A program made the position numbers and the translations under genes. The notes beneath the pieces are model-generated. The model saw nothing but the letters and a program-made list of their open reading frames with translations. It ran no database searches and had not been told where the DNA came from. DNA of 45,947 nucleotides from Vectrevirus NIC06P3, in the sequence record OZ035778.1. The stretch is one strand, 5' to 3'. Position 1 is the first letter of the stretch. Each line of letters opens with the position of its first letter. Below are positions 2,684-22,710 of this stretch, piece after piece.

Positions 2684-2971
2684 ATGGCTAAATATGGTAC
2701 TACAGGTTCTGTTACGGGTCAGGCTTTTCGAGTGAAAGCAGTACAAACTATTGCAACGGCAATTCCTATGCCTGTTGTTGCTGAAGAAGACCTTAAGAAG
2801 AAAGATCATCCTATCAACATCAAACATTTATCAGGTAAACAGAGAGGTGCAATGGTTGTTATTTCGAGAGCGGACACAACCGTGCATATTGCTGTTGCAC
2901 GTGGTAGTGAGCCCACCGACGTTTGGGATGTAACTACTATGGACCCCCTTGCTGTTACACCAGGGGAGTGA
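2684..2971 (+). CDS. hypothetical protein, paralog family member 2
   Basis: RBS GAAGGAGGAAG; motif LSGKQRGAMVVI ... TDVWD shared with neighbours. Confidence 0.55.
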   Translation: MAKYGTTGSVTGQAFRVKAVQTIATAIPMPVVAEEDLKKKDHPINIKHLSGKQRGAMVVISRADTTVHIAVARGSEPTDVWDVTTMDPLAVTPGE

Positions 2972-2978
2972 TATTATC

Positions 2979-3656
2979 GTGTTAGGTATTACAGGACAAC
3001 GAAGTGTAAGTCATCAAGCTAAGGTTGCCACGGAAGTGGCTCCTATCGTTGATATCTCAGATGTGTCTGACGTTAACTCTTATCTAAACCAAAAGTACCT
3101 ATCAGGTAAACAGGAAGGATATACTGTTCTGGCTAAGAAAGGTTCACGTTATTCATTGTATGCTGCAACAGGTTCTAAGCCAGAAGATAAGTGGTTGCCT
3201 TTAGAGCAAGCAACCTTACCTGATTCGAGTGCATTAGAGCTAATTGACACCATCGATGTTGAAGTTGCAAGTGCAAGCGACACAGTAGAGGTTAATGTAA
3301 CCAAAGAGAGGACTGTGTGCATCCAGACGCCTATGAAGGACTTAGCAGGTGATACAGTTTACCGGCAAGAATTGACTGCCAACATTAACCTTACCATTAA
3401 TGAAAACGGAAGCCCAAGCGATACGGTTAAATTAAACATATCAATTCCTAATTTGCCAGGAACATCTAGTGGGTCTTACTATACAGTTGACAATGTGCTG
3501 TGTACTTCTTTTGGAGACGACAGTCCTGTTATTGCCAATATAGATGTCGATAAGGCTACCACTAACTTGATTGCTGTTACACTTCGTAAAGAGACGGCAA
3601 CAGATATTAAGCTGTCTCTTGTAATTAGGTGGTCAATGCCAGTGGAGGTTGTATAA
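2979..3656 (+). CDS. hypothetical protein, paralog family member 3 with C-terminal extension
   Basis: Motif YLSGKQEGYTVL ... EDKWLP; start uncertain (GTG 2979 or TTG 2949); stop overlaps the endolysin ATG (TAATG). Confidence 0.45.
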   Translation: MLGITGQRSVSHQAKVATEVAPIVDISDVSDVNSYLNQKYLSGKQEGYTVLAKKGSRYSLYAATGSKPEDKWLPLEQATLPDSSALELIDTIDVEVASASDTVEVNVTKERTVCIQTPMKDLAGDTVYRQELTANINLTINENGSPSDTVKLNISIPNLPGTSSGSYYTVDNVLCTSFGDDSPVIANIDVDKATTNLIAVTLRKETATDIKLSLVIRWSMPVEVV

Positions 3657-4574: not shown

Positions 4575-4597
4575 ATTTAGGTGACACTATAGAAGAG
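4575..4597 (+). promoter_or_regulatory. SP6-type phage promoter (exact SP6 consensus)
   Basis: ATTTAGGTGACACTATAGAAGAG. Confidence 0.85.
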
Positions 4598-4669
4598 ATA
4601 GAGCGGCGATCGTTTGGTCGCCCTTTACTCAAGGTGCTCATGGTGGGCGCTTTAAGTAAAGGAGGAAAC

Positions 4670-5923
4670 ATGGCTCTAACGAGGCTTAGTTCTGATTTAG
4701 TCCGTGACGCAAAAGATGGTGGCACGTTGGGAGAGTGCCTACACGGATTTATGTCATTCTCTCAAGCAAAAGAAATAACAGGCTCTGATCAAGCTGCAAT
4801 GGAGTACCTCTTCTCTAACGCAAAAGTTATCTACATCAACGAGTCTTTGACACTAACAGAGAAGATAACCACAGACAGAAGTTCCGAGGTTACGGTACTT
4901 ACAAAGCCAGGTGTTGTAATAAATAACCTAGGATACATGCCAACAACAAGAACAAACCCCAATCACGTGGTTTCTGGTTTGTCTGTTAGAAACAAATTCA
5001 AACAAGATAATCAGTCTATTAATGGCAGGGTTTATAGTAAGCAAGCTGCATCATTTGAAGCAGCGGTTCATGATGCTGTTAGCAACGGTGGTACTTCTTC
5101 ATCTGAAAACTTTGTTGCACTTTATTCTGGGATAGAGTTCTTTAATTCCACGCTGCAAAGAGGTTGGGCCTTCAACTCTGTAACCAACTGCCATGGTATG
5201 AATACCGGAGATGAGATGTATGGTTATGAGTTGGACTTCAACGTAGATGGCAACCTAGATGGTGGCGGTCAAGCAGTTGGCTTGTACATTGCAGGTATTG
5301 GTGATTTGCGTCAGTGTGCAAACTCTGATGGCATTCGTGTACAACGGACACGTGACCTTGGTGGATTGTATAAGTGGAACCATGGTATTCGAGTTTTTGA
5401 CTCTATGACAGGCCTTGCCGTGATAGATTCAGCTACATATTCCATATTCGCACAAGGTTCTGCCCCTATAGTAAGGCGTAAGGCTGTGCAGGATGGAGGT
5501 TGGAGCTACATCCATAGTCTTAGCCCTACTAATATAACTTGGGGTGTTGATGATTATGGCTACACTTACTCGCCTCGTCTGTATCTTGGGTCTGGTTCTG
5601 GTAAGTCTAAGAACAGGGTTAATCTAGAAGGTGGTGTTTCATTTTACACCACTAACAAACCTGTTGGTTGGGGTGACATTGCTGCTGGGGCTTCTGTAAC
5701 TAAAAACTTCACAGAGTTGTTTGGTCTTGAAGAAGGCGACTACTCTAAGGCGGTGTTTACTGTAGGTGAGTTCCGTGTGGCTAACTCTTACGGAAGTTTG
5801 TTTGTCACTGTCTACACTAACTCAGCAAAAACTCAGGGGTATGTTAAGGTTACTAACCTAGGCTCAACTACTGTAACAGGCGTTGGGATAGGGATCAACC
5901 TGTCAATCCAAAAGGCGGGATAA
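4670..5923 (+). CDS. tailspike / receptor-binding protein 1
   Basis: 418-aa ORF with its own promoter, RBS AAAGGAGGAAAC, MALT N-terminus and leader shared with the next tailspike; Gly/Ser/Thr-rich beta-type composition. Specificity unknown. Confidence 0.55.
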   Translation: MALTRLSSDLVRDAKDGGTLGECLHGFMSFSQAKEITGSDQAAMEYLFSNAKVIYINESLTLTEKITTDRSSEVTVLTKPGVVINNLGYMPTTRTNPNHVVSGLSVRNKFKQDNQSINGRVYSKQAASFEAAVHDAVSNGGTSSSENFVALYSGIEFFNSTLQRGWAFNSVTNCHGMNTGDEMYGYELDFNVDGNLDGGGQAVGLYIAGIGDLRQCANSDGIRVQRTRDLGGLYKWNHGIRVFDSMTGLAVIDSATYSIFAQGSAPIVRRKAVQDGGWSYIHSLSPTNITWGVDDYGYTYSPRLYLGSGSGKSKNRVNLEGGVSFYTTNKPVGWGDIAAGASVTKNFTELFGLEEGDYSKAVFTVGEFRVANSYGSLFVTVYTNSAKTQGYVKVTNLGSTTVTGVGIGINLSIQKAG

Positions 5924-6011
5924 TAGGTATGTGCGGCGTAAGCCGCACTTTACGCGAACTTTCTTTCTTCATAGGCACTCATGGTGGGTGTCTATAAACA
6001 AAGGAGGTTAC

Positions 6012-8006
6012 ATGGCTTTAACCAAAGCTACAACAGTTAATGCATATCAGGGGCGTCCACCCGTTGTAATCACTGATAGCGTCGAAGATAAGTTAATGGA
6101 TGGACGTGCTGGTCTTCGTAAGCACTTTGGTGCTGTTGGGGACGGGCAACATGATGATACAGACGCCTTTGAAAAATGGATGGATTGCCTAACAGATGCA
6201 ACATATAAGCGTTTAGGGGCATTTTCGGACGAACACCCATATATGCTACAGAAAGGGCCACAGCTCATGTTAGAAGATGGGGCTTTCGTGTATGCTGGCA
6301 AAGGTTTGAACATCCCTACCCATCATGCCTTTGTTCTAAACATAATTGGACAAAGTTCCTTATCTACAAAAATTATCCTACCAGAAGATGTGTACTTCTT
6401 GGATTTAGATAACAACCCTGTGTTTTCTTATATGTCAGGTATTACGTTCCATGGTGGACTAGGTGCTGTACGCATGAAGTCTAAGTCATGCAATGCAACA
6501 AGTATGCACATATTTGAGCGTCTACGTATGTCTAGGTATAAGCAGTGTGCCTTTAGTAACAACTCAATAGATATGCCTTACGTTAAAATCAGAGACTCAG
6601 TGTTTATGGGAGATGTATCCAGAGAGACAATTGGACTGTGCTTATCTGGCCTGTCTGCTGGTAGTGATATCACAGGGAATCAGTTCACTGATAACAGGTA
6701 TAATCTCAAGTTAGCTGTTGCAGACAATGGTGTAGAACGTAATGGACCACCAACGCCTCTAAACATAGTAGGTAATGATTTCTATCGGACAGGACACCGC
6801 TCAGGTGCATCTTATGATATTTGGATTGAACCAGGTAAAACAGCTACAAACTCAGGACGGGGACTTGTTTTACAACGTAATAAGTTTGGGCAGGAGAACC
6901 TAAAGAGTCCAGATGCACACATTCTCATTGCAGATAGTGGGACAGGGCAAGGTGGTGATTTAAATGGGGACAGAATGCATGTAGAGACAAAATCTTCTGG
7001 ATTTGTGTCAGGCATTCTTTCAGAAGGCAACAATGTTAACTCTATCAATGGAAGTTACACTGCACCATACATCCGTAGCTTCACACCTAACTTTGGTAAC
7101 AATAAGATCCATGATATTTATGACAATGGAATGCCGTCTCGTATAGTAGAGTTCGCAGGTGGTATTACGCAAAGTGAAGTGGTTAATATATCTCGCACTA
7201 ATATGCTTGAGATTGATCAGTCTCTTGCCCTCCAGAAAGGGGATGTACCTAATTTATTGTCTAACCTAGATGGTGTGTTTCGTGTAAGGGATGATTTGGG
7301 TCTGTTGGCAGGACACCCTCAAGTGCACGACACACCAACCGGTTCTCAGATGTCAGATTTTCTGCATGTATATAAAGGACCAACATCTAGTCTTGCTGTT
7401 GCAGAAGCAACGCGCTTGGCTATTGATAACTCCTATGGAGGTAAAAATGAGGCAGCAGAGTTCACTATGACAACGGAAGATGGACGTGCAGTTGCAACGG
7501 TGACAGGGCTTGTTGCTGGTGATACTTTCTGGTTAGATTTTGAGGTAAAGAGATCTGCTGACAATGCGGCCCCTCGTGTGCTCTTCGAGGTACTAGATTC
7601 AAGTGCGAGTACCTTACTTCTTCGAAGGACTATACTGTTAGATGCGAAGCAGAGATGGCAGAAAGTTGTGCTACCTTTTGTGCCAAACAGTTCTGGTAGT
7701 ATCTTTGTTCGCTTTAAGGCGAAAGGTTGGACACCTTCTAATAAGAAGTTTCAAGTAGGAAACCTTAATGTATACCGCAACCATACACCAGTTAACACTG
7801 GACATAATGGAGGTTTATCTTCCTCTTGGAGTTCACAGCACATCCTTATTGGGTCTTACCACTTATGGGTAGATGCAACTGGCGCATTGCGTATCAAAGA
7901 TGGCGCACCTACGTCTGTTAACGATGGTGTCATCGTTGGCAGTCAGTCAGAAAGTGTTAGCCAACAAGTATCGGGTGATGGTATACAAACCATTGATAGT
8001 GTCTAA
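6012..8006 (+). CDS. tailspike 2, pectate-lyase-like beta-helix (probable polysaccharide depolymerase)
   Basis: HFGAVGDGQHDDTDAFEKW motif typical of right-handed beta-helix tailspikes; RBS AAAGGAGG; MALT N-terminus. Confidence 0.65.
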   Translation: MALTKATTVNAYQGRPPVVITDSVEDKLMDGRAGLRKHFGAVGDGQHDDTDAFEKWMDCLTDATYKRLGAFSDEHPYMLQKGPQLMLEDGAFVYAGKGLNIPTHHAFVLNIIGQSSLSTKIILPEDVYFLDLDNNPVFSYMSGITFHGGLGAVRMKSKSCNATSMHIFERLRMSRYKQCAFSNNSIDMPYVKIRDSVFMGDVSRETIGLCLSGLSAGSDITGNQFTDNRYNLKLAVADNGVERNGPPTPLNIVGNDFYRTGHRSGASYDIWIEPGKTATNSGRGLVLQRNKFGQENLKSPDAHILIADSGTGQGGDLNGDRMHVETKSSGFVSGILSEGNNVNSINGSYTAPYIRSFTPNFGNNKIHDIYDNGMPSRIVEFAGGITQSEVVNISRTNMLEIDQSLALQKGDVPNLLSNLDGVFRVRDDLGLLAGHPQVHDTPTGSQMSDFLHVYKGPTSSLAVAEATRLAIDNSYGGKNEAAEFTMTTEDGRAVATVTGLVAGDTFWLDFEVKRSADNAAPRVLFEVLDSSASTLLLRRTILLDAKQRWQKVVLPFVPNSSGSIFVRFKAKGWTPSNKKFQVGNLNVYRNHTPVNTGHNGGLSSSWSSQHILIGSYHLWVDATGALRIKDGAPTSVNDGVIVGSQSESVSQQVSGDGIQTIDSV

Positions 8007-8356
8007 AAGTAGATAGGCTGTACGGCAGAATACGCAGGAACTTATTGCTTCATATCGTAACGTGAAGAAATAATTTTGCATCGTCTGCGTAGCAGTTAGT
8101 ATCTTAGTGTAACAAAGGGCTGACCTAGGTTGGCTCTTCATGAAGGAGGCAACATGATTTGGATTCACACGTATGGTGTAGGGCCGTTCAAGAAGAAGGT
8201 ACTCAGGAAGATTCATGAGTCCGAGGAATCAGCCTTAGCCAGCCAGAAGGTACTTGGTGGTACTGTCCAGTGCTACATGAAGAAGCCACAAGGCTTTAGC
8301 TTAGTATAATACAATAGTTAATATGAAAGGTTAGGTGTATGTTGTAGGGAGGTTTA

Positions 8357-8620
8357 ATGGTCATTGTCTCTAGTAAGAAGAAGAAGCAGAGTGAAATGGA
8401 TAAGATAGTGCAGACAGGTCTTGCTGCTAAGTCTGGTCAGCCACTCAATACTGGCACTAGTTCAATGGACAAGATCGTTGAAACAGGGAAACAGGCAATG
8501 TCTGGTGGGTTGGACAAGGGTGCACGGAAGCAGGCTGAGTTCAATAAGATTATTGATTTCGGTAAGGAAGCTAAGAGGGAATTCTTAAGACCATCTGCGG
8601 TAGAACCAGTAAGACACTAG
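8357..8620 (+). CDS. hypothetical protein with internal repeat MDKIV(Q/E)TG
   Basis: 87-aa ORF, Lys-rich; location in the genome right-end region; coding status uncertain. Confidence 0.3.
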   Translation: MVIVSSKKKKQSEMDKIVQTGLAAKSGQPLNTGTSSMDKIVETGKQAMSGGLDKGARKQAEFNKIIDFGKEAKREFLRPSAVEPVRH

Positions 8621-8670
8621 GTAGATTCTTAGTCCTGTACAAGGATTAACCAAAGTCAAAATTTTGATAT

Positions 8671-9590
8671 AGGCGTGTGTGAGCTCTCTCGCCCTCGCCC
8701 TCGCCGGGTTGCCCCCCCCCCCCCCCGCCCCCCCCCGCCGCGCCGGGGGCCGGGGGGGGGGCGGGGGGCGGGGGGGGGGCCGGGCCCGCCGCGCGCCGCC
8801 ACCCGGGAGGAGGCCCCCGCGGCCGTAGACGCGCTGTGCCTGAGCGTCCCCGCCGCGGCCGAGACGGCCCTGCGGCGTCTCCTGGTCGGGGAGGCCGCGG
8901 CGCCTCAGCGCGAGGACGCCGGGTCGACGGCGGCGGCGCCGGCCGGACCGGGCTCCTCCTCGGGCGAGCCCGGCGAGGGCGCGCTCACGGACCAGGCCAG
9001 CCAGAGCCCCAGCGCGTAGAGCGGCAGACCCATCACGAGACGGGCGACGCCCAGGGCCGTCGCCGCGTCCGCGAGGTAGAGCGGCACCTGCACGCCCAGC
9101 CGCAGCGCGAAGACGGCCGCCATCACCCAGGTGGCCGCCGCGTAGGCGCGCCGGCGGCGGGGGTCCGCACGCCATGCGGTCCCCTCCCCGCGCACGAGGC
9201 CGAGGATCAGGCCCACCACGGGCCAGCCCGCGAGGATCGAGACGAGGAACGCGAGGCCGTAGCCGGCGTTCGTGATGAAGCCCCAGAGGTAGTAGTCCCG
9301 GGCCTGCCCCGTGGTCAGGGCCACCGCCACCGAGAGCACGACGACGACGAGCCCGGCCAGGACCTGCGCGGGCGACTGGCGCTGCGCGAGCCGGACCACG
9401 CCCATGAGGACGGCCACGCCCGCGGCGGCCACGCCCGAGGGCCACACCTGCTGGGCCCCCGTGGTTTGGGGGGGTCGTTGTGGTCTGAATCCGCGCGTTT
9501 TCACAATGTAAATTTTTTTTTTTGAGGGGTGGTTGTGCCCGCCCCCCCCGCCCCCCGGGGGGGGCCCCCCCCCCCCCCCCCCCCCCATAT
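8671..9590. other. foreign high-GC block bounded by C/G homopolymer tracts (probable chimeric/artefactual insert)
   Basis: Abrupt composition shift; C16/C8/G10-type runs at 8711-8790 and a C22 run at 9565-9586; T11 run at 9514-9524; minus-strand frame reads like a truncated polytopic membrane protein. Confidence 0.6.
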
Positions 9591-9659
9591 GGGTGGCCTT
9601 GGTGATTGGCTTAGGAATTGGGCTGGGCGGGGCCGTCTTCGACGGGTTGGCTGGGGGGC

Positions 9660-10236
9660 TTGCCTTGTACTATCTTAGTGATACACAAGGGAGGACGCCT
9701 AGGAAGCGCTAGGGCACGCCTTAGTATTGGACAAGGTGATTGCCTTAGTGCAACCACTTTGGGCTTACACAGGCCGTTTTAGGGCCATTCTGGGCTATTG
9801 ACAGGGTGGGCGTGGGTGGGCTATCTGTTCGTTTCGTTCACTCCGCTTGCGCTACGTTCACTCGCTCACGTGTACCTTAGGTTATTGCTTGATGGGTAGC
9901 TTAAGTTAACCTTAGTGGATTGCCTTAGTTAAAGCCTTAGTGCTTCACTTAGTATCAGCTTAGTAGTGTACCTTAGTTGGTCTTAGTTCCTTATCTTAGT
10001 GATTGCACATGCAAGCATATAAGATGCCAATAGGTCGCGGTCGGTAGACCGCTAAAGAAAGAGAATAGTAATAAGATGCAGCAGGAGGAACACCAGAAAC
10101 CTAGCCAACCTAACCTATCCTAGCCTTGTATCTATTGCTTATCCTTAGTCTCACACGTTAGACAACCTAGGTTTATATTAGTAGTTGTGACCTGTATCAC
10201 ATAAATAATCTATCTTAGTGAAACTTAGTGTTGACA
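9660..10236. repeat. array of short CTTAGT(G) repeats in the genome left-end non-coding region
   Basis: At least 15 copies of (C)CTTAGT(G), eight of them within about 100 bp (9900-10010); analogous to the short repeat arrays near T7 termini. Confidence 0.55.
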
Positions 10237-12631: not shown

Positions 12632-15259
12632 ATGCAAGATTTACATGCTATCCAGCTTCAATTAGAAGAAGAAATGTTTAACGGTGGCATTCGTCGCTTT
12701 GAAGCAGACCAACAGCGCCAAATTGCATCCGGTAACGAATCCGATACAGCTTGGAATCGCCGCTTATTATCCGAGTTAATCGCGCCAATGGCTGAAGGTA
12801 TTCAGGCTTATAAGGAAGAGTACGAAGGTAAAAGAGGCCGTGCACCGCGTGCATTAGCTTTCATTAACTGTGTAGAAAACGAAGTGGCAGCATATATCAC
12901 GATGAAAATCGTTATGGATATGCTGAACACGGATGTAACCTTGCAAGCGATAGCCATGAATGTAGCGGACCGCATCGAAGACCAAGTCCGCTTTAGCAAG
13001 CTGGAAGGTCACGCCGCAAAATACTTTGAGAAAGTTAAGAAGTCACTTAAGGCAAGTAAGACTAAAGCCTATCGCCATGCGCATAATGTAGCGGTAGTTG
13101 CTGAAAAGTCAGTGGCTGACCGTGACGCAGACTTCTCCCGCTGGGAGGCGTGGCCTAAAGATACCTTGCTGCAAATAGGCACTACCCTGCTTGAAATCTT
13201 AGAGAATAGTGTGTTCTTCAACGGTCAGCCTGTTTTCCTCCGCACCTTGCGCACTAATGGCGGCAAGCATGGCGTTTACTACTTACAGACTAGTGAACAC
13301 GTTGGCGAGTGGATAACTGCATTTAAAGAGCACGTAGCGCAGCTTAGTCCTGCCTATGCGCCTTGCGTTATCCCTCCGCGTCCGTGGGTGTCACCATTTA
13401 ACGGTGGTTTTCACACTGAGAGAGTGGCTAGTCGTATCCGTCTAGTTAAAGGCAACCGCGAGCACGTCCGCAAGCTAACCAAAAAGCAAATGCCAGCGGT
13501 TTACAAGGCTGTTAACGCTTTGCAGGCGACCAAGTGGCAGGTTAATAAGGAAGTGTTGCAGGTTGTTGAGGATGTTATCCGCCTAGACCTTGGTTATGGT
13601 GTGCCTTCCTTTAAGCCACTCATCGACCGCGAGAATAAGCCAGCTAATCCGGTTCCGCTTGAGTTCCAGCACCTGCGCGGTCGTGAACTGAAAGAAATGT
13701 TAACACCGGAACAATGGCAAGCCTTCATCAACTGGAAGGGTGAATGTACTAAGCTGTATACCGCAGAGACTAAGCGTGGCAGTAAGTCGGCGGCAACCGT
13801 TCGCATGGTCGGGCAAGCCCGTAAATACAGCCAGTTTGACGCTATTTATTTTGTATATGCACTGGATAGCCGTTCACGCGTTTATGCGCAATCTAGCACG
13901 CTCTCGCCGCAGTCAAACGACCTAGGCAAGGCATTGCTACGATTTACCGAAGGGCAGCCGCTAAACAGCTCTGAAGCGCTTAAATGGTTTTTGGTGAACG
14001 GGGCAAATAACTGGGGTTGGGATAAGAAAACCTTCGACGTCCGCACCGCTAATGTGCTGGATGGCGAATTTCAGGACATGTGCCGCGATATTGCAGCCGA
14101 TCCTCTGACCTTCACTCAATGGGTAAATGCCGATTCACCTTATGGGTTTCTTGCATGGTGCTTTGAGTACGCTCGCTATTTGGATGCACTGGAGGAAGGC
14201 ACACAAGATCAGTTCATGACACACCTGCCAGTACACCAAGACGGTAGCTGTTCCGGCATTCAGCACTATAGCGCGATGTTACGCGATGAAGTAGGTGCGA
14301 AAGCGGTAAACCTTAAGCCGTCCGATGAGCCGCAAGATATTTATGGGGCCGTTGCGCAAGTAGTTATCCAGAAGAACTATGCTTACATGAATGCAGATGA
14401 TGCAGAGACTTTCACGTCTGGCAGCGTCACCCTTACAGGTGCGGAATTGCGTAGCATGGCTAGCGCGTGGGATATGATAGGAATCACTCGCGGCTTAACC
14501 AAAAAGCCAGTGATGACCTTGCCTTACGGCTCCACCCGCTTAACCTGCCGTGAGTCGGTGATCGATTATATCGTTGATTTAGAAGAAAAAGAGGCACAAA
14601 GAGCTATTGCAGAAGGGCGGACGGCTAACCCTGTTCATCCCTTTGATAATGACCGTAAAGATTACTTAACTCCGGGCGCGGCGTATAACTATATGACCGC
14701 TCTTATCTGGCCTTCAATCTCTGAGGTTGTGAAAGCTCCGATAGTTGCCATGAAGATGATTAGGCAACTTGCACGCTTTGCAGCTAAAAGGAATGAAGGG
14801 TTAGAATACCCTCTGCCTACTGGCTTCATATTGCAACAAAAGATAATGGCTACCGATATGCTCCGCGTATCCACTTGTTTGATGGGTGAAATCAAGATGA
14901 GTCTACAGATTGAAACCGATGTGGTGGATGAAACGGCAATGATGGGTGCGGCTGCTCCTAACTTTGTGCATGGTCATGATGCTAGTCACCTTATCCTGAC
15001 TGTATGTGACCTCGTGGATAAAGGTATTACATCCATTGCAGTTATTCATGACTCTTTCGGCACTCATGCAGGACGTACCGCAGACTTGCGTGACAGCTTA
15101 AGGGCAGAAATGGTTAAGATGTATCAAAACCATAATGCCTTGCAAAACCTGCTGGATGTGCACGAAGAACGTTGGTTAGTAGACACCGGAATCCAAGTAC
15201 CCGAGCAAGGGGCGTTTGACCTTAACGAAATCTTAATATCTGACTATTGCTTCGCATAA
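12632..15259 (+). CDS. single-subunit DNA-dependent RNA polymerase, SP6-like
   Basis: 875 aa; near-colinear with the SP6 RNA polymerase as I recall it ([32 protein letters not shown]..., [15 protein letters not shown], ... FA C-terminus). Confidence 0.97.
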
Positions 15260-15331
15260 TATTGATAGGCCATTCCTTCGGGAGTGGCCTTTTCTTTACC
15301 TACTACCTGTAACATTTCATTAACATAAAGT

Positions 15332-15347
15332 GTCTCACATGTGAGAC
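15332..15347. promoter_or_regulatory. 16-bp perfect palindrome GTCTCACATGTGAGAC, copy 1
   Basis: Exact core also at 15518, 18599, 24792 and 41458, with a one-base variant at 20024; all intergenic. Confidence 0.5.
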
Positions 15348-15350
15348 TTA

Positions 15351-15373
15351 TATTTACCGGACACTATAGGATA
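15351..15373 (+). promoter_or_regulatory. phage promoter
   Basis: TATTTACCGGACACTATAGGATA. Confidence 0.7.
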
Positions 15374-15517
15374 AACCATCGGAGATGGGAAAGAGAAGGG
15401 AAGATAAAGGATATAAAGGAAGTAATAGGTATTAAAGGTTATATAGGTTTACCTAGGAATACCTATTACCTTCTTCCTTCCTCCTCTTACTACTTAGAGG
15501 AAGGGCAGACCTATGTT

Positions 15518-15533
15518 GTCTCACATGTGAGAC
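15518..15533. promoter_or_regulatory. 16-bp palindrome GTCTCACATGTGAGAC, copy 2
   Basis: Exact repeat of the core. Confidence 0.5.
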
Positions 15534-15537
15534 TTCG

Positions 15538-15560
15538 TATTTACCGGACAATATAGATAA
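15538..15560 (+). promoter_or_regulatory. variant phage promoter (GTATTTACCGGACAATATAGATA)
   Basis: Two core mismatches; second of a tandem pair downstream of the RNA polymerase gene. Confidence 0.5.
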
Positions 15561-15586
15561 GACTAACTCACTTTGGAGATTTAAAG

Positions 15587-15715
15587 ATGCGTAACTTTGA
15601 GAAGATGACCTGTAAAGCTAACCGTTTTGACATGGAAGAAGGGCAGAAGAAAGGCAAGAAGCTGAATAAACCTGTCCGTGACCGTGCATCCAAACGCGCA
15701 GCGTGGGAGTTCTAA
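15587..15715 (+). CDS. small basic protein, T7 gp1.1-like
   Basis: 42 aa starting MRNFEKMT, as T7 gp1.1 does by my recollection; position right after the RNA polymerase gene. Confidence 0.5.
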   Translation: MRNFEKMTCKANRFDMEEGQKKGKKLNKPVRDRASKRAAWEF

Positions 15716-15718
15716 GTT

Positions 15719-15937
15719 ATGGCTAAATATAGAATTAAGACACACATGGATTGCAGCGGTGTGGAACGTTATACAGTTCAGCGTAAAATACTAGGATTAT
15801 TATGGGTAGATTGCATCATACCGTTTGGATATGTAGATGGCCCTGCTATCTTCTCTCATGAAGAAGATGCCAAGGCATTTATATCAAAAAGAAAGAAGAT
15901 TGATTCCTATAAGTCTAAAGTTATTAAGGTGAACTAA
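15719..15937 (+). CDS. hypothetical protein
   Basis: 72-aa ORF with RBS GGGAG; stop overlaps the primase/helicase start. Confidence 0.4.
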   Translation: MAKYRIKTHMDCSGVERYTVQRKILGLLWVDCIIPFGYVDGPAIFSHEEDAKAFISKRKKIDSYKSKVIKVN

Positions 15938-17916
15938 TGGCTATTATTAATAACATCCCGTGCCCTGCCTGCCAGAAGAATGGACACGATAAATCCGGCA
16001 ATCATCTTATGATATTTGATGATGGTGCTGGCTATTGTAACCGTGGTCACTTCCACGATAATGGCAGACCTTACTACCATAAGCCTGAAGGCGGCATCGA
16101 GATAACCGAGTTGCCTATCACAGGTAACATCAAATACACCCCTTCCCAATTCAAAGAGATGGAGAAGGAAGGGAAGATTAGCGACCCTAAACTACGCGCC
16201 ATCGCACTTGGTGGTATGCGTATGAAAGACCGTTGGGAGGTCATGAATGAGCAAGAAAGGGCAGACCAAGAAGCAGAGTGGAAACTTGATGTTGAATGGT
16301 TCCTCACGCTTAAGCGTAAGAACCTTGTTTCCCGACACATTCGCGGCGACATTTGCGCATTGTATGATGTACGTGTCGGACACGATGAAGAAGGTAGAGT
16401 CTCGCGGCATTATTATCCACGCTTCGAAAAAGGTGAGTTAGTAGGCGCTAAGTGTCGCACATTACCTAAAGACTTTAAGTTTGGTCACTTAGGCAAGCTC
16501 TTTGGTATGCAAGACCTTTTCGGGATGAACACTTTGTCTCACGTGTTAGACAAGGGAAGACGAAAGGATTGCTTACTTATTGTAGGCGGTGAACTTGATG
16601 CACTAGCAGCGCAGCAGATGCTTCTTGATTCTGCCAAAGGCACTAAGTGGGAAGGCCAACCCTACCATGTATGGTCTGTCAACAAGGGGGAGTCTTGCCT
16701 TGAAGAGATAGTGCAAAACCGTGAGCACATCGCCCAATTCAAGAAGATTATTTGGGGCTTTGATGGAGATGAGGTAGGGCAGAAGCAGAACCAGCAAGCG
16801 GCTCGCCTGTTTCCCGGCAAATCCTATATCCTTGAGTACCCTTCTGGTTGCAAAGATGCTAACAAGGCATTGATGGCTGGCAAGTCTAAAGAGTTTGTGG
16901 ATGCATGGTTTAATGCCAAGTCCTCTGATGAAGTCTTTGGTAGCCAGATTAAATCTATCGCATCTCAAAGGGACAAGCTCAAAGCTGCACGCCCAGAGCA
17001 AGGGTTGTCATGGCCTTGGCCTAAGCTGAACAAGGTAACGCTAGGTATTCGTAAGAATCAGCTTATCATTGTAGGTGCAGGCTCTGGTGTGGGTAAGACT
17101 GAGTTCCTTCGTGAAGTAGTTAAGCATCTCATTGAAGAGCATGGAGAATCTGTAGGCATCATTTCTACAGAAGACCCGATGGTCAAGGTATCCCGTGCCT
17201 TTATCGGTAAGTGGATTGATAAGCGTATTGAACTACCGCCAACCAACGATCCGAAAGAGGATGGATACCGTGAGGTGTTCGACTACACAGAGGAAGAAGC
17301 TAATGCTGCCATTGATTATGTAGCTGACACAGGGAAGCTATTTGTGGCTGACCTAGAAGGTGACTATTCAATGGAGAAGGTGGAGCAAACTTGCCTTGAG
17401 TTTGAGGCTATGGGTATTTCTAATATCATCATTGATAACTTAACGGGGATTAAATTAGATGAGCGTGCTTTTGGTGGGAAGGTTGGTGCACTTGATGAAT
17501 GCGTCAAGCGGATTGGTACTATCAAAGACCGACACCCAGTTACTATATTCCTTGTATCACACCTTACACGCCCTGCGGGAAATAGAGTCCAGCACGAAGA
17601 AGGTGGCGAGGTTATCCTTTCTGACTTCCGAGGCTCAGGCGCTATCGGATTCTGGGCATCTTACGCCTTGGGGATTGAGCGTAATACAAGAGCTGAAACG
17701 CTTGATGAAAGGACTACCACGTACATCTCATGTGTCAAAGACCGTGACCAAGGTGTGTGGACTGGCACTAAAGTGAAACTTAAAGGTGATATGACCACAG
17801 GGAGGTTGTTGGAATGGGAAGATCGTGTTTCTAGATTTGACACAGGTATCCCTAAGGAGCAAAGTGTACCTGATGAAAACACAGGAGAGTTGAATGAAGA
17901 AACTTCAGAGTTTTGA
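15937..17916 (+). CDS. DNA primase/helicase (T7 gp4-like)
   Basis: N-terminal zinc ribbon CPACQ ... CNRGH; Walker A GAGSGVGKT; 659 aa. Confidence 0.93.
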   Translation: MAIINNIPCPACQKNGHDKSGNHLMIFDDGAGYCNRGHFHDNGRPYYHKPEGGIEITELPITGNIKYTPSQFKEMEKEGKISDPKLRAIALGGMRMKDRWEVMNEQERADQEAEWKLDVEWFLTLKRKNLVSRHIRGDICALYDVRVGHDEEGRVSRHYYPRFEKGELVGAKCRTLPKDFKFGHLGKLFGMQDLFGMNTLSHVLDKGRRKDCLLIVGGELDALAAQQMLLDSAKGTKWEGQPYHVWSVNKGESCLEEIVQNREHIAQFKKIIWGFDGDEVGQKQNQQAARLFPGKSYILEYPSGCKDANKALMAGKSKEFVDAWFNAKSSDEVFGSQIKSIASQRDKLKAARPEQGLSWPWPKLNKVTLGIRKNQLIIVGAGSGVGKTEFLREVVKHLIEEHGESVGIISTEDPMVKVSRAFIGKWIDKRIELPPTNDPKEDGYREVFDYTEEEANAAIDYVADTGKLFVADLEGDYSMEKVEQTCLEFEAMGISNIIIDNLTGIKLDERAFGGKVGALDECVKRIGTIKDRHPVTIFLVSHLTRPAGNRVQHEEGGEVILSDFRGSGAIGFWASYALGIERNTRAETLDERTTTYISCVKDRDQGVWTGTKVKLKGDMTTGRLLEWEDRVSRFDTGIPKEQSVPDENTGELNEETSEF

Positions 17917-18385
17917 GGAAGCAGGATATGTCGTCAAGGAAGACGGCACGATCTTAAACCCAAAAGGTTTGGTCAGAAAACCATCCTTCGCAGGTAGGAA
18001 TGTTAAATACTATGTAGTATCTTGGAGGGATAAACACTCTAAGAAAACAATCATAGATTTAGTTCACAGATTGGTTGCTAAGAAGTACATACCTAACCCA
18101 TATGGTTTACCAGAAGTTCATCATAAAGACTTTAATCCTCTTAATTGTCATAAAGACAATCTTGAATGGACAGATGGTAAGTCTAACTGTGAGTACAGTT
18201 ATGCAAGGGTAAAGGCTTCACTTGCACGTCGTGCTACTTTGTTGTCACCTGATGGCACTAAGTACGACATATTTAATGTTCGTAAATTCTGCCGTGAGCA
18301 TAACCTCAATCCACCCAGCATATTTGAAGTGCTTAGTGGTAAGCGTAAATCTCACAAAGGGTGGACTATTTACCGGACACTATAG
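17894..18385 (+). CDS. HNH homing endonuclease
   Basis: VHHKDFNPLNCHKDNLEW HNH motif; overlaps the primase/helicase 3' end and runs into the downstream promoter. Confidence 0.75.
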   Translation: MKKLQSFEEAGYVVKEDGTILNPKGLVRKPSFAGRNVKYYVVSWRDKHSKKTIIDLVHRLVAKKYIPNPYGLPEVHHKDFNPLNCHKDNLEWTDGKSNCEYSYARVKASLARRATLLSPDGTKYDIFNVRKFCREHNLNPPSIFEVLSGKRKSHKGWTIYRTL

Positions 18386-18390
18386 AAGAG
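18367..18390 (+). promoter_or_regulatory. phage promoter
   Basis: CTATTTACCGGACACTATAGAAGAG. Confidence 0.8.
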
Positions 18391-18419
18391 ACAACCTTTG
18401 ATGATGAACAGGAGTTTTA

Positions 18420-18581
18420 ATGGAAATTATTAAACCACTATTGAATATCGGCGTTGACATCCTATTCATGCTTATGCTGGCAAATTATGCTTCACGATAC
18501 GGCTTCAAGCCAGCAGTGAAACTTATCGTTGCATCTGGTTTTATTATGTCAGCATTCTTTGTTGTAACACGTCTTATCTAG
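18420..18581 (+). CDS. small hydrophobic protein (53 aa)
   Basis: Two predicted hydrophobic segments; RBS AGGAG; below the ORF-track cutoff. Confidence 0.35.
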   Translation: MEIIKPLLNIGVDILFMLMLANYASRYGFKPAVKLIVASGFIMSAFFVVTRLI

Positions 18582-18598
18582 TGTATTTATCAGGGCTT

Positions 18599-18614
18599 GT
18601 CTCACATGTGAGAC
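18599..18614. promoter_or_regulatory. 16-bp palindrome GTCTCACATGTGAGAC, copy 3 (extended stem GCTTGTCTCAC/GTGAGACAGGC)
   Basis: Exact core; flanks extend the stem. Confidence 0.5.
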
Positions 18615-18652
18615 AGGCTCTTATTAAGTACATTAATAACTGGAGATTGATT

Positions 18653-19336
18653 ATGTGTAAATTAGTATTGAATGCAGGTGATTATGTTCGTAACATCAAT
18701 GAGATCTCACGTCGCTATCGTTGCCGTGGCGTTGTTAGCGATGTAAGTGAGAATATGTACCACGTAGTATATAGCAATGGTATCAGTCAGTCTTATCACA
18801 AGAAGTCAGCACACAACTACCTTGAGAAGATTGGAGAGGCAAGCAATCAATGTAAGTGTGTACACGATGAGGTTTGCGATAAGTGTGCTCGCCAGATGCA
18901 GAAGGTGGTATTGCATCACCACCTGTACAGAGGTGGTATTCAAACCTTAGCAGAGGCGTGTGGCACAACTAAGACTACTCTCAAGAAAGAGCGCCGCAAT
19001 GTAATCACTGGTAAGACTCAGAGTGAAATGATTAAGCAATGTGGCACTGCATTAGGTGTATCACAGTTTAACACTCGTGCATTGGGTAAATCCACAGGGC
19101 AAGCTATGGTTAAGATTGGTGAAGCCATGATGCACCCAAATGTACCTGTGCGAATCATGGATGTTGACCATGCAATCACAGAACATGGTACACCACGACG
19201 TGTAGCTAATAAGCATTTTGCCGACACTATAGAAGGTATTATTCGTAAGCAAGGGTTGAAAGGTCTTCACCTCTTGAATGGTGAAGAATTACTGTACCTT
19301 CCTATCGTTACTGAAGAAACCTACGTGAATATCTAA
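18653..19336 (+). CDS. hypothetical protein
   Basis: 227 aa from ATG 18653 with RBS TGGAG; Cys-rich segment CKCVHDEVCDKC; contains an internal promoter-like core at 19213-19236. Confidence 0.5.
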   Translation: MCKLVLNAGDYVRNINEISRRYRCRGVVSDVSENMYHVVYSNGISQSYHKKSAHNYLEKIGEASNQCKCVHDEVCDKCARQMQKVVLHHHLYRGGIQTLAEACGTTKTTLKKERRNVITGKTQSEMIKQCGTALGVSQFNTRALGKSTGQAMVKIGEAMMHPNVPVRIMDVDHAITEHGTPRRVANKHFADTIEGIIRKQGLKGLHLLNGEELLYLPIVTEETYVNI

Positions 19337-19346
19337 GGAGTTAATC

Positions 19347-19562
19347 ATGACTAAAGTTCTAATTATCAGAGACTGCGGTGAAAAGTTTTATGGTATTGTA
19401 TCACCAAATGGTGTTAAAGTGGTGAGCCATAAACCTAATGCAATACGAGGTGCTGGTAGGTCAGCTAGTTTTCAAATGGTCCTATATGGTAATCTTACTG
19501 AGAAACAATTCCGTAATAAGTGGAAGGTTATCGGCAGCTTTATGGTGGAGACTAAACAATGA
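19347..19562 (+). CDS. hypothetical protein
   Basis: RBS AAGGAG; 71 aa. Confidence 0.45.
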   Translation: MTKVLIIRDCGEKFYGIVSPNGVKVVSHKPNAIRGAGRSASFQMVLYGNLTEKQFRNKWKVIGSFMVETKQ

Positions 19563-19813
19563 AGCAACGTGCAATCAAACGCTGTATCAAGCGTGCTCAA
19601 AAGCAGTTACGTCGTGGTACATTTAAAGGGCGTATGCGTATTGTAAGTTTTAATGCCAAAGGTATTGTCTTTGTTAGATCTTATAAAGAAGGCCGAACTA
19701 TTTATGTGAATGATAATGGTATTGGCTGGGGCGTAGGTGCTGCACTAAGTAAGTGTGGTGGTCATGGTCATTGGGTAGGTAACAAAGTAGAGGTAGCAAT
19801 TTCTTATGTCTAA
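19559..19813 (+). CDS. hypothetical protein
   Basis: 84 aa; start overlaps previous stop (ATGA). Confidence 0.4.
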   Translation: MKQRAIKRCIKRAQKQLRRGTFKGRMRIVSFNAKGIVFVRSYKEGRTIYVNDNGIGWGVGAALSKCGGHGHWVGNKVEVAISYV

Positions 19814-20012
19814 ACACAGCCTTAAGATGTTTGATGGTCACGAAGACCTGCAAGCACACATCACTAATCAAGCCTTCCTGTTTGCACAGCTAACTATGGC
19901 TGAAGCAAAGAAGAATAGCCTGACGCGTGAGCAGGTTATCAAGGAGGCAACTTGGGAGCCACACCAAGGGAAATACATGGGCCATAAATTAACTGTAACA
20001 CGCAGTCGATAA
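19806..20012 (+). CDS. hypothetical protein
   Basis: 68 aa; overlapping gene arrangement. Confidence 0.35.
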   Translation: MSKHSLKMFDGHEDLQAHITNQAFLFAQLTMAEAKKNSLTREQVIKEATWEPHQGKYMGHKLTVTRSR

Positions 20013-20023
20013 GTCAAGGGTTG

Positions 20024-20039
20024 TCTCACACGTGAGACA
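20024..20039. promoter_or_regulatory. palindrome variant GTCTCACACGTGAGAC, copy 4
   Basis: One symmetric change (CACGTG centre), keeps perfect dyad symmetry. Confidence 0.45.
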
Positions 20040-20136
20040 GCCTTTCATCATGTTGATTGGAGGTGCATTATGCCACGTGATTATGATTCTGATTGGGACT
20101 ACTATGACTCAATGAATCCAAAACCCGAACGTTCAG

Positions 20137-22710
20137 ATGATTACTACGAAACAGAGGCAATGTATGAAGATTACTGATTGGAAGAAGGAGGCAAAAGGCC
20201 GTATCCTAGTAATGGATGCGGAGGCTAAAGGCTTGCTTGATGCTATCCGATATGGACACCGCGAAGATGTGCACATCATTTGCTGCATGGATTTGCTTAC
20301 TACCGAGGAGTTCCTCTTCTTTGACCCGTATGAGATGCGTGACCCTGAAGCAAGGGAGCGCCTGAAGGAATGGGAAGGGCATCAAGACGGTGACTTGGTT
20401 GACGGTGTTAACTTCCTGAAGCACTGTGAAGCTATCGTGTCACAGAACTTCCTAGGTTATGACGGCCTTCTCTTTGAGAAAGCATTCCCTACTATCTGGA
20501 AAGGCTTTAACTATACCGAGAGGCGCGGCAAGGGCAGACTCCGCGCCGACCTGTGTCCTGTGCGAGTCATGGACACGCTGGTGATGAGTCGCCTGTTAAA
20601 CCCCGATAGACGCCTTCCTCCGCAAGCATATGCCAAAGGTATGGGTAACGTCGCCCCTCACTCAATTGAGGCGCACGGCATCCGTATAGGCCGCTATAAA
20701 CCGGAGAACAAGGACTGGTCTAAGCTGACCGACCACATGGTTCACCGTGTACGTGAGGACGTGGCGATTGGTCGTGACTTTTTCCTGTGGCTGTATAACG
20801 GGGAGTGGGTGGAGCACAAACGCCGTGGCGTGAATAAACGTACTGGCCTAGGCATTGAGACAGCCTTCCACATGGAGTCCATTGTGGCGCTGGAGATGAG
20901 CCGTCAGGCCGAGCGCGGATTCCGTCTGGACATCGACAAGGCTTTGTCCCGATGCGAAGAACTGGACGCTAAGATTGATGAGACAGTCGCAGCGTTCCGC
21001 CCGCACATGCCTATGCGTATCAAGTCTAAACCTTTTAAACCGGAAGAAAAGAATGAAGTATGCCAACGCGCAAATGAGTATGGAGCTAGCAACAATATAC
21101 CTACTATCCTGGACCCCTCACACTTTCTTCATGCCGAGAGACGAGGAGATCGCAAGACAGTATGGAGTGTCACTACTAAGTCTGGTGATTGGTCGGCTAG
21201 TGTCAAGAAAGACTTTCCTCACCTTAGAGGAAACCGTAATGACACGCCAAGCATCAAGTGGATTGGCGCTTACTCTCCTGTTACGTTTGAAGAGATTCCC
21301 TTGGGAAACCGTGACACCGTTAAGCAAGTGCTCTACGAATATGGCTGGAAAGGTGTGGAGTTCAACGACACAGACCAAGCCTATCTTGATGAAAATGGTG
21401 TCCTACCTAAGCCTTGGAGTGGTAAGATAAATGAGAAATCCCTTACTTTATGGCAAGAAAGAGCAGCACGTGAAGGTAAAACAGTCCCTGATTGGTGCTT
21501 GGGTATCGCTGCATGGTACATACTCGTATCCCGTCGTGGTCAGATCCTCAACCGTGGTGACGTTGAAGTCTTCAACGAGAAAGGTACGTGGCCCTCGCAG
21601 GCTGGTGTACGAAAGTGTCGCGGCCTTGTACCTGTAGCCTTTAACAAGGAGCTAGGAATCAATGCACAGCAATACTACGAGAGGTATGGGTGTTGGCCCA
21701 CGTCTGACAAGGATGACGGAGAGTGGCGTGTACCAGCTATTGCTATTAGCATTGGCACTTCTACGTTCCGTATGCGTCATCGTAACGTGGTTAATATTCC
21801 TGCCCGTGGCTTGTATCCTTTACGTGATTTATTCATAGCAGGTAAAGGTAAGCTAATCCTAGGCTGTGATGGTGCAGGTCTGGAACTACGTGTACTCTCT
21901 CACTTCATGAATGACCCTGAGTACCAAGATATTGTACTGCACGGTGACATCCATACGCATAACCAGATGAAGGCAGGTCTTCCTAAGCGTGATATGGCGA
22001 AGACATTTATATATGCTTTCCTCTACGGCTCTGGTATAGCAAACCTTGCAGCAGTATGTGGTGTTACTGAGGAAGAGATGAAAGAAGTTGTGGCAAGATT
22101 TGAGATTGAGCTACCATCTCTTGCACGTCTTCGTGAGAATGTTATTGCACAAGGTAACAAATTTGGCTACCTACAAGCACCTGATGGACATTGGGGTCGA
22201 ATCCGTATGTCTGGTGGGGAACTTAAAGAGCACACTATGCTTAACGTGTTACTCCAGATGACTGGCTCTTTGTGTATGAAATACGCATTGGTTAAGGCGT
22301 TTGCAGTGATGCGCAAGGAAGGTGTAGCTCTAGATAGCATGGGAAATCCTTGTGGTGTAGCTAACGTGCACGATGAAATCCAGATGGAAGTACCCGAAGA
22401 TGAGGTCTTGTATCTTAACTACGACTTACCTTTCACCTTAGAAGGGTTTGAAACAGAGAAGGCTGCTGTGAAAGCAGTGTTCGATGCAGAGGAGAAACGT
22501 GTTCATGTTGACTCTGAGGGACGTATGTGGTCGGCTGCAAATCTCGTTAGCGTTGATGCTGATGCTGGTGTACTTCATTGCCAGCGCCGTTATCACCGTG
22601 CAGGGCATATCATTGCCGACGCCATGACTTGGGCTGGTCAGTATCTGAAGATGCGTTGCCCGATGGCTGGCGAGTATAAGATTGGTGCAAGTTGGAAGGA
22701 AACACACTGA
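20137..22710 (+). CDS. DNA polymerase (T7 gp5-like, family A)
   Basis: DGAGLELRVLSHFM, KTFIYAFLYGSG and VHDEIQMEV match T7 DNA polymerase motifs; start codon uncertain (20137 or 20164). Confidence 0.93.
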   Translation: MITTKQRQCMKITDWKKEAKGRILVMDAEAKGLLDAIRYGHREDVHIICCMDLLTTEEFLFFDPYEMRDPEARERLKEWEGHQDGDLVDGVNFLKHCEAIVSQNFLGYDGLLFEKAFPTIWKGFNYTERRGKGRLRADLCPVRVMDTLVMSRLLNPDRRLPPQAYAKGMGNVAPHSIEAHGIRIGRYKPENKDWSKLTDHMVHRVREDVAIGRDFFLWLYNGEWVEHKRRGVNKRTGLGIETAFHMESIVALEMSRQAERGFRLDIDKALSRCEELDAKIDETVAAFRPHMPMRIKSKPFKPEEKNEVCQRANEYGASNNIPTILDPSHFLHAERRGDRKTVWSVTTKSGDWSASVKKDFPHLRGNRNDTPSIKWIGAYSPVTFEEIPLGNRDTVKQVLYEYGWKGVEFNDTDQAYLDENGVLPKPWSGKINEKSLTLWQERAAREGKTVPDWCLGIAAWYILVSRRGQILNRGDVEVFNEKGTWPSQAGVRKCRGLVPVAFNKELGINAQQYYERYGCWPTSDKDDGEWRVPAIAISIGTSTFRMRHRNVVNIPARGLYPLRDLFIAGKGKLILGCDGAGLELRVLSHFMNDPEYQDIVLHGDIHTHNQMKAGLPKRDMAKTFIYAFLYGSGIANLAAVCGVTEEEMKEVVARFEIELPSLARLRENVIAQGNKFGYLQAPDGHWGRIRMSGGELKEHTMLNVLLQMTGSLCMKYALVKAFAVMRKEGVALDSMGNPCGVANVHDEIQMEVPEDEVLYLNYDLPFTLEGFETEKAAVKAVFDAEEKRVHVDSEGRMWSAANLVSVDADAGVLHCQRRYHRAGHIIADAMTWAGQYLKMRCPMAGEYKIGASWKETH

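Follow-up and report, generated by a model that had tools for sequence, protein, structure and literature searches.

The genome of Vectrevirus NIC06P3 (sequence record OZ035778.1) carries an open reading frame (ORF) at 17894-18385 of the 45,947-nucleotide stretch of DNA analysed here, referred to as a whole as the window. The ORF begins within the final codons of the primase/helicase gene and ends inside a phage promoter. We propose, with a probability of roughly 0.8, that it is a free-standing HNH homing endonuclease gene of the I-HmuI branch, mobile together with a variant primase tail. As read from the sequence, the element sits inside the 3' coding region of the primase and brings a substitute acidic tail ending in Glu-Phe-stop (EF*). 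It is a well-known kind of phage mobile element, and its architecture is neat but precedented. The first-pass annotation had described a mobile endonuclease insertion in a replication module, and both the existence of empty-site relatives and the movement of the cassette bear this out.

The window is a Vectrevirus, a K1E/SP6-like podophage. A query of 2.5 kb around the locus matched 118 phage records at ~90% identity, nearly all of them Vectrevirus, Zindervirus or allied Molineuxvirinae (K1E-, K1-5- and SP6-like Autographiviridae), and comparison with K1E showed a complete, circularly permuted genome that is collinear at 83-94% identity save for a few replaced segments. K1E gene 9 and SP6 gene 10, the homologues of the invaded gene, are both annotated as DNA primase/helicase, and the orthologue in the metagenomic contig L090 has a DnaB_C Pfam match. 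The locus contains the following features:

15937-17916, plus strand: primase/helicase gene (659 amino acids), the invaded host gene, homologous to K1E gene 9 and SP6 gene 10
17742-17916, plus strand: variant primase 3' end travelling with the HNH ORF, encoding ...GVWTGTKVKLKGDMTTGRLLEWEDRVSRFDTGIPKEQSVPDENTGELNEETSEF*; left edge approximate
17883-17887, plus strand: Shine-Dalgarno sequence AGGAG of the HNH ORF, within primase coding sequence, with a spacer of 6 nucleotides (nt) to the ATG
17894-18385, plus strand: HNH ORF, ATG start, 163 amino acids, intact; probable free-standing I-HmuI-like endonuclease gene
18368-18390, plus strand: promoter for a phage RNA polymerase (SP6/K1E-type), ATTTACCGGACACTATAGAAGAG, positions -17 to +6; right insertion boundary
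18368-18420, plus strand: vestigial native primase C-terminus, in the K1E frame LPDTIEETTFDDEQEF*, now promoter, 5' leader and ribosome-binding site of the next gene
18420-18581, plus strand: gp9.5 homologue (53 amino acids), the first gene 3' of the HNH ORF; K1E gene 9.5 is equivalently placed

Clean empty sites were read directly in K1E, CrRp3, ULINTec7, P433.1 and SP6. In all of these the promoter lies within the primase coding sequence, where GACACTATAGAAGAG encodes DTIEE. The K1E gene ends GTG CCG GAT TTA CCG GAC ACT ATA GAA GAG ACA ACC TTT GAC GAT GAA CAG GAG TTT TAA, encoding ...VPDLPDTIEETTFDDEQEF*, and its stop overlaps the ATG of gene 9.5; in the Proteus phage Pm5460 an annotated 'promoter' also lies beneath the primase 3' end. 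The sequence equivalent to window 18368-18420 constitutes the last 17 primase codons and the stop in K1E, CrRp3 and ULINTec7. The ORF had been pictured earlier as wedged between primase and promoter; the insertion is upheld, but in empty-site phages the promoter is itself primase coding sequence.

In the window, homology to K1E ends at 17792 and resumes exactly at 18368, with 575 bp replacing the 80 bp of K1E. The promoter-plus-tail sequence is intact in every HNH-containing genome but lies 3' of the HNH ORF, and the right junction (GGACT/ATTTA, the slash marking the boundary) is identical in all five junction sequences read (the window, ULINTec6, PDP21P3, BP12B and L094) and common to the Vectrevirus and Zindervirus copies. 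The primases of HNH-containing phages end in acidic tails of their own, ...VPDENTGELNEETSEF* in the window and ULINTec6, ...VPEEGEVTGADETQEF* in BP12B and ...VPEEVVDKGGFIADEVEEF* in PDP21P3, and in all copies the terminal Glu-Phe-stop of this substitute tail is embedded in the N-terminal codons of the HNH ORF (..SFE..). The presence of two acidic EF* tails, one used and one vestigial, fixes the polarity: the empty site is ancestral and the element was inserted into it. That a substitute tail has to come with the element can be explained from the T7 helicase, whose C-terminal tails are highly negative and bind the DNA polymerase through basic patches on it; deleting them lowers processivity threefold (PMC8472574). 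A tblastn search with the variant 54-residue tail recovered only ULINTec6 at 100%, with the next best match at 59% or below, and found no donor lineage. P433.1 had been considered as an intermediate carrying the inserted tail without the HNH ORF; its sequence is an ordinary K1-5-type empty site.

The same anatomy bears on whether the ORF could be an ancestral gene, one that the shared ancestor of Vectrevirus and Zindervirus already had and that was lost repeatedly, with no insertion involved. Such a history would account for orthologues at the same junction in two genera with saturated synonymous divergence (dS) between them, and for a distant homologue (34.6% identity) directly after the primase in Era103-like phages. 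The filled allele, however, has a redundant vestigial native tail 3' of the HNH ORF, and each loss would have to recreate the exact promoter-in-tail frame common to K1E and SP6. In addition, the backbones of ULINTec6 and L090 match those of HNH-less phages, K1E and CrRp3, at 90-100% identity until the cassette begins, and the Era103 HNH gene lies beyond the primase stop, which is a different insertion point. Repeated loss is already disfavoured, and we consider it very unlikely.

The ORF overlaps its neighbours over only 23 + 18 of its 492 nt. The primase TGA stop at 17914-17916 produces a 23-nt overlap in a different frame, confirming that the ORF begins within the last primase/helicase codons as had been noted. 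The final 18 nt are promoter sequence, in keeping with the earlier claim that the 3' end runs through a promoter at 18367-18390, except that this promoter starts at 18368. The ORF enters the promoter and ends at the first stop met there, which is a TAG at positions -2 to +1 in the Vectrevirus copies; in the Zindervirus orthologues it is the TAG in the ATTTAGG of the SP6-type promoter, three codons earlier. Because the stop is taken from the promoter, the terminal YRTL is a chance product of where the element inserted. At the other end, the BP12B and PDP21P3 copies have an equivalent GGAGG with GTG or TTG starts. Seven sites like the promoter 23-mer occur in the window, all on the plus strand, where shuffled sequences give an expectation of 0.00.

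An Rfam scan of window 15000-21000 detected no group I or group II intron at E<=1, and the primase ORF is continuous. An intron-encoded endonuclease is ruled out by this null result together with the uninterrupted primase ORF. As the intron scan finds nothing relevant, the HNH ORF is free-standing. The positive control for the scan was another primase insertion, that of ULINTec6, which returned Intron_gpI (38 bits, E=2.6e-7). This separate insertion of ~790 bp splits the primase/helicase gene in both ULINTec6 and ULINTec7 (L001, L004 692-1479) and is annotated 'HNH homing endonuclease' and 'Phage intron', its group I intron match being sub-threshold; the window is empty at the corresponding position, 17090/17092.

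The product of the ORF is a predicted HNH endonuclease of the I-HmuI branch, and its assignment to the HNH family is far beyond chance. The HNH motif reported earlier, HHKDFNPLNCHKDNLEW, was found at residues 76-92, and the ORF matches PHROG 59 'HNH endonuclease' (E=5.5e-26). Its sole PDB sequence match is I-HmuI of Bacillus phage SPO1 (1U3E, E=1e-6). The catalytic His and Asn residues are present on alignment, with His77, Asn89 and Asn98 corresponding to His75, Asn87 and Asn96 of I-HmuI; among 21 homologues His77, Asn84 and Asn89 never vary, and Asn98 is kept in at least 90%. An AlphaFold2 model built on the 21-homologue alignment (predicted local distance difference test score, pLDDT, 86.7) places the beta-beta-alpha element at strand 74-77, strand 90-93 and helix 95-109, with His77 at the end of the first strand. 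Foldseek returned I-HmuI as the sole significant PDB match of this model (1u3e_M, full length, E=6e-11, probability 1.00), and the alignment of 176 columns and 174 residues supports a three-domain architecture. Two parts of the protein were delimited:

18119-18187, plus strand: HNH beta-beta-alpha-metal catalytic core, residues 76-98, HHKDFNPLNCHKDNLEWTDGKSN, aligned to I-HmuI D74/H75/N87/N96
18251-18367, plus strand: predicted C-terminal NUMOD/helix-turn-helix-like DNA-binding region, residues 120-158, from Pfam, PHROG and the model

For the C-terminal region, the I-HmuI NUMOD-like family PF22083 matched at E=0.0021 (18.1 bits against a cut-off of 27) and PHROG 925, a helix-turn-helix DNA-binding protein, matched residues 128-156. 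The model has helices at 129-135 and 140-148, and the I-HmuI alignment extends to residue 168 of that enzyme. In the PDB, both the sequence and the predicted structure significantly match I-HmuI and nothing else. The two proteins are of similar length (174 residues against 163) and share a three-part order: a beta-sheet DNA binder at the N-terminus, the HNH beta-beta-alpha-metal core in the middle and a NUMOD/helix-turn-helix-like region at the C-terminus. Their identity is ~26%, and while the I-HmuI gene lies in a group I intron that interrupts a DNA polymerase gene, the window ORF is free-standing and intron-less. I-HmuI is a strand-specific nickase; the window enzyme may nick one strand or cut both.

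Cassette DNA at >=80% query coverage was found in 6 of 50,697 phage records, which represent four phages in two genera: ULINTec6, PDP21P3 (two records), BP12B (two records) and GRNsp03. Homologous flanks occur in 118-140 phage records. Among the listed records, a junction-spanning K1E probe is unbroken except in ULINTec6 and PDP21P3, where it is split in two, and in BP12B, which matches only its first 126 nt. Across the relatives compared at this junction the ORF is therefore not universally present, and empty sites are the rule. Orthologous proteins above 70% identity come from the same four phages, at 92.6% amino acid identity in ULINTec6 (UCR91822.1, annotated 'putative HNH homing endonuclease'), 77.9% in PDP21P3 and 74-75% in BP12B (gp11) and GRNsp03 (GRNsp03_220). 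All are placed at the same junction, overlap the primase stop and terminate within the promoter. Metagenomes yielded ~14 further protein clusters with at least 73% identity to the HNH protein, and all four clusters that were looked up lie on Vectrevirus- or Zindervirus-like contigs in the same position. A scan of IMG/VR returned one close relative, BP12B itself, and distant HNH homologues in unrelated contexts. A tblastn search of the whole window with the HNH ORF gave the self-match only, with no paralogue. A full-text literature search found no paper discussing this element, and the ULINTec6 paper is silent on its orthologue.

Other homing sites are found in these phages. Vectrevirus has a second HNH hot spot, which precedes the DNA polymerase gene; it is filled in LL11, ULINTec7 and the Sem phages and empty here. 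In K1E, gene 40.5 ('putative homing endonuclease', K1E 38556-39303) splits the terminase large subunit gene into 40A and 40B; at window 1495/1496 gene 40.5 is absent and the terminase gene is continuous, which makes this another empty homing site. The Salmonella phage BP12B shows, beside its HNH cassette, the loss of most of the SP6 gp11 homologue (L005 2485-3000 versus L007 2414-3114). This deletion appears to lie between two GTGACACTATAGG repeats, namely the primase-tail promoter core and a promoter-like copy inside the SP6 gp11 homologue.

Evidence for movement came from sliding identity along the window and from the dS of the primase body. Over 17742-17916, identity to the HNH-less K1E and CrRp3 drops from 96-100% to 78/52/58%, while identity to the HNH-containing ULINTec6 and L090 stays at 84-98%. 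The same drop at the primase 3' end was seen in every pair of HNH-containing and HNH-less genomes tested, in two genera; in each case divergence starts after the block at 17592-17741, which is 96-100% identical in every genome, and stops at the promoter. The left edge of the cassette is approximate, with the crossover somewhere in or after this block. Because divergence is confined between the conserved block and the promoter, the exchanged unit is the variant tail plus the HNH ORF, and both bounding sequences are conserved enough to support homologous recombination.

Individual genomes are mosaic at the same boundaries. The ULINTec6 primase is K1E-like up to window 17741 (dS 0.073, 96-100% identity); from 17742 to ~18130, covering the tail and the 5' half of the HNH ORF, it is window-like (94-100%); and the 3' half of its HNH ORF is PDP21P3-like (94-100%). 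Downstream of the promoter, where K1E and PDP21P3 are themselves much alike, ULINTec6 shows 96-100% identity to each of them. Metagenomic L090 follows the HNH-less CrRp3 (90-100% identity) up to 17741, after which it is of the window type. Judged from these comparisons, ULINTec6 is a K1E backbone with the cassette and L090 a CrRp3 backbone with the cassette. PDP21P3, a Vectrevirus, has a K1E-like primase body and a tail closer to that of the Zindervirus BP12B (85/70/73%) than to that of K1E (77/58/50%).

We propose that the mobile unit is a cassette of ~0.6 kb made up of the variant primase/helicase 3' end and the HNH gene, with its right edge at promoter position -17. Insertion would sever the native tail from the primase, the Glu-Phe-stop tail of the cassette would replace it, its last codons overlapping the HNH start, and the native tail would persist downstream as promoter and leader. 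For translation, the HNH gene probably relies on its own AGGAG/ATG within the middle-class transcript of the primase. By analogy with I-HmuI, T4 Seg/Mob and the HNH genes of the T3/T7 group, spread would need mixed infection with an HNH-less relative, whose DNA the enzyme would nick or cut at or near the primase-tail/promoter junction. The break would be repaired by recombination against the HNH-containing genome, with the left crossover in the primase block that is 96-100% conserved and the right one in the promoter/leader, and tail and HNH gene would be copied together. The filled allele would be expected to be immune if its recognition site is lost through the insertion and the divergence of the tail; filled and empty alleles differ by 40-50% at and left of the insertion point, which is only a necessary condition for immunity.

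Pairwise ratios of nonsynonymous to synonymous divergence (dN/dS) among six HNH orthologues, computed over 150 codons with those overlapping the primase excluded, were 0.04-0.21, indicating that the HNH protein is under purifying selection. For L095 the primase-body dN/dS was left out since an indel put the comparison out of register. The constraint on the HNH protein is difficult to reconcile with an inert relic, that is, a decaying, non-cutting endonuclease kept open by chance or by its overlaps. The sub-threshold Pfam scores would fit such a relic, as would the copy in L094 (Logan SRR27143269, 3001-3519), in which an A-run beyond the HNH motif contains 2 extra nt (+2), so that the C-terminal half is out of frame. 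That contig has a K1-5-type background without gene 9.5, and its frameshift may mean either that the homing endonuclease gene is decaying or that the homopolymer was misassembled. Against decay stand the low dN/dS outside the overlap, catalytic residues that are invariant or nearly so, a confidently predicted full-length fold, and overlaps limited to 23 + 18 of the 492 nt. An inert relic is in our view extremely unlikely.

Several observations weigh against the interpretation as a mobile homing endonuclease gene. The Pfam HNH_3 family (PF13392) scores 22.2 bits against a gathering cut-off of 24.8 and the NUMOD-like match is also sub-threshold, so that Pfam alone would miss the HNH domain; several homologues carry precomputed PF13392 matches. 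The metal-binding Asp74 of I-HmuI is replaced by His76, a common HNH variant. The dS of HNH orthologues ranges from 0.3 to >2.5, equal to or above that of the primase body, and the element is therefore old at this locus. Ordinary modular recombination, rather than homing, may explain part of the patchy distribution. Finally, the promoter half-site recurs at least seven times per genome, so specificity would need the primase-tail half of the target.

The age of the element and the strong purifying selection on it would also suit a domesticated or competition nuclease, kept for cutting co-infecting relatives or for the phage's own recombination or replication, without copying itself. Such a role fits the long residence at one site, where the HNH gene has a dS as high as that of the host gene or higher, and enzymes of the I-HmuI type reportedly favour flanking markers in mixed infection, as Goodrich-Blair and Shub are said to have found in 1996. 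The great majority of close relatives, however, replicate without the HNH gene, which moves between backbones as a discrete cassette. Moreover, marker exclusion and homing are mechanistically one event, and the difference from a homing endonuclease is mostly one of emphasis. A purely domesticated role therefore seems unlikely to us.

The homing interpretation can be extended to a composite target made up of an immutable RNA polymerase promoter and the primase tail, with the tail variant altering the coupling of helicase and polymerase and thereby biasing the hybrid replisomes of mixed infections toward the HNH-containing genome. The promoter half of such a target could not mutate because the phage's own polymerase needs it. 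We regard this extension as rather unlikely. If it were true, a homing element would be tied to both transcription specificity and replisome compatibility, and this would be the first phage case of the 'foreign C-terminus plus mobile ORF' strategy of fungal mitochondria.

The element has clear counterparts among known systems. Free-standing phage homing endonuclease genes such as T4 seg/mob (for example mobE) are intron-less and located beside essential genes (PMC2790892), and phage homing endonuclease genes, those of ICP1 included, are concentrated in or close to essential genes and delimit recombination (PMC10448857). The window element resembles them as an intron-less ORF by an essential replication gene, with patchy occurrence, flank co-conversion and a recombination boundary. 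Those genes are usually intergenic, whereas the window element lies inside the 3' coding region of its host gene and brings a substitute gene end. For this feature the closest parallel is in fungal mitochondria, where mobile ORFs carry a foreign C-terminus (Allomyces atp6; Glomus atp6, atp9, cox2 and nad3; PMC3630166). The layout is identical, running from gene core through foreign C-terminus and endonuclease ORF to the displaced native C-terminus, and there too it is the inserted C-terminus that has diverged further (PMC3630166). The fungal elements encode LAGLIDADG or GIY-YIG enzymes in organelles, in contrast to an HNH enzyme in a phage, and the displaced native tail in the window is apparently no dead pseudogene but doubles as promoter and leader.

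The locus is a compact case of a homing element that enters the coding region of an essential gene by bringing a substitute gene end, with neither intron nor intein. It accounts for a primase 3' end that is locally 40-50% divergent between phages otherwise 90-100% identical, and it separates a selfish add-on from the core replication machinery in a therapeutic-type K1/K5 coliphage genome. The practical value lies mainly in the annotation and comparison of these phages; in this group the promoter is read as primase-tail codons, and the two are not to be split as separate features. As a tool, the enzyme would, if active, offer a new way of nicking or cutting DNA sequence-specifically, its target being set partly by an SP6/K1E-type promoter.

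Some features elsewhere in the window were also recorded. At 4575-4597 there is an exact canonical SP6 promoter, ATTTAGGTGACACTATAGAAGAG, the other window promoters being of the K1E type, ATTTAC(C/T)GGACACTATAG. It lies at the start of a tailspike region (4601-9582) unrelated to the K1E endosialidase, which suggests that the region arrived as a module together with this promoter. Between the homologues of genes 42 and 43 (endolysin), a 709-bp segment without K1E counterpart contains an extra 235-residue ORF (2949-3656) with no Pfam match. A block of ~950 bp at 8650-9600 has 71-89% GC against ~42-47% for the genome, with long poly-C/G runs on both sides, and just precedes position 9583, where homology to both K1E genome ends begins. 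A minus-strand ORF in this block (8905-9588) matches DUF3159 (172.5 bits, E=1e-50), a mostly actinobacterial family. Rather than phage sequence, the block most likely represents foreign or chimeric DNA where the genome ends were joined, for example an assembly or library artefact.

Lastly, the 16-nt palindrome GTCTCACATGTGAGAC occurs eight times in the window against 0.01 expected, exactly at 15332, 15518, 18599, 24792 and 41458 and as variants at 10148, 16536 and 20023. A phage promoter follows three of the exact copies (15332, 15518 and 24792) at a distance of 5-15 nt, and the copy at 18599 comes after gp9.5. The palindrome is conserved in K1E, PDP21P3 and ULINTec6; its possible roles are hairpin processing, termination or protein binding.

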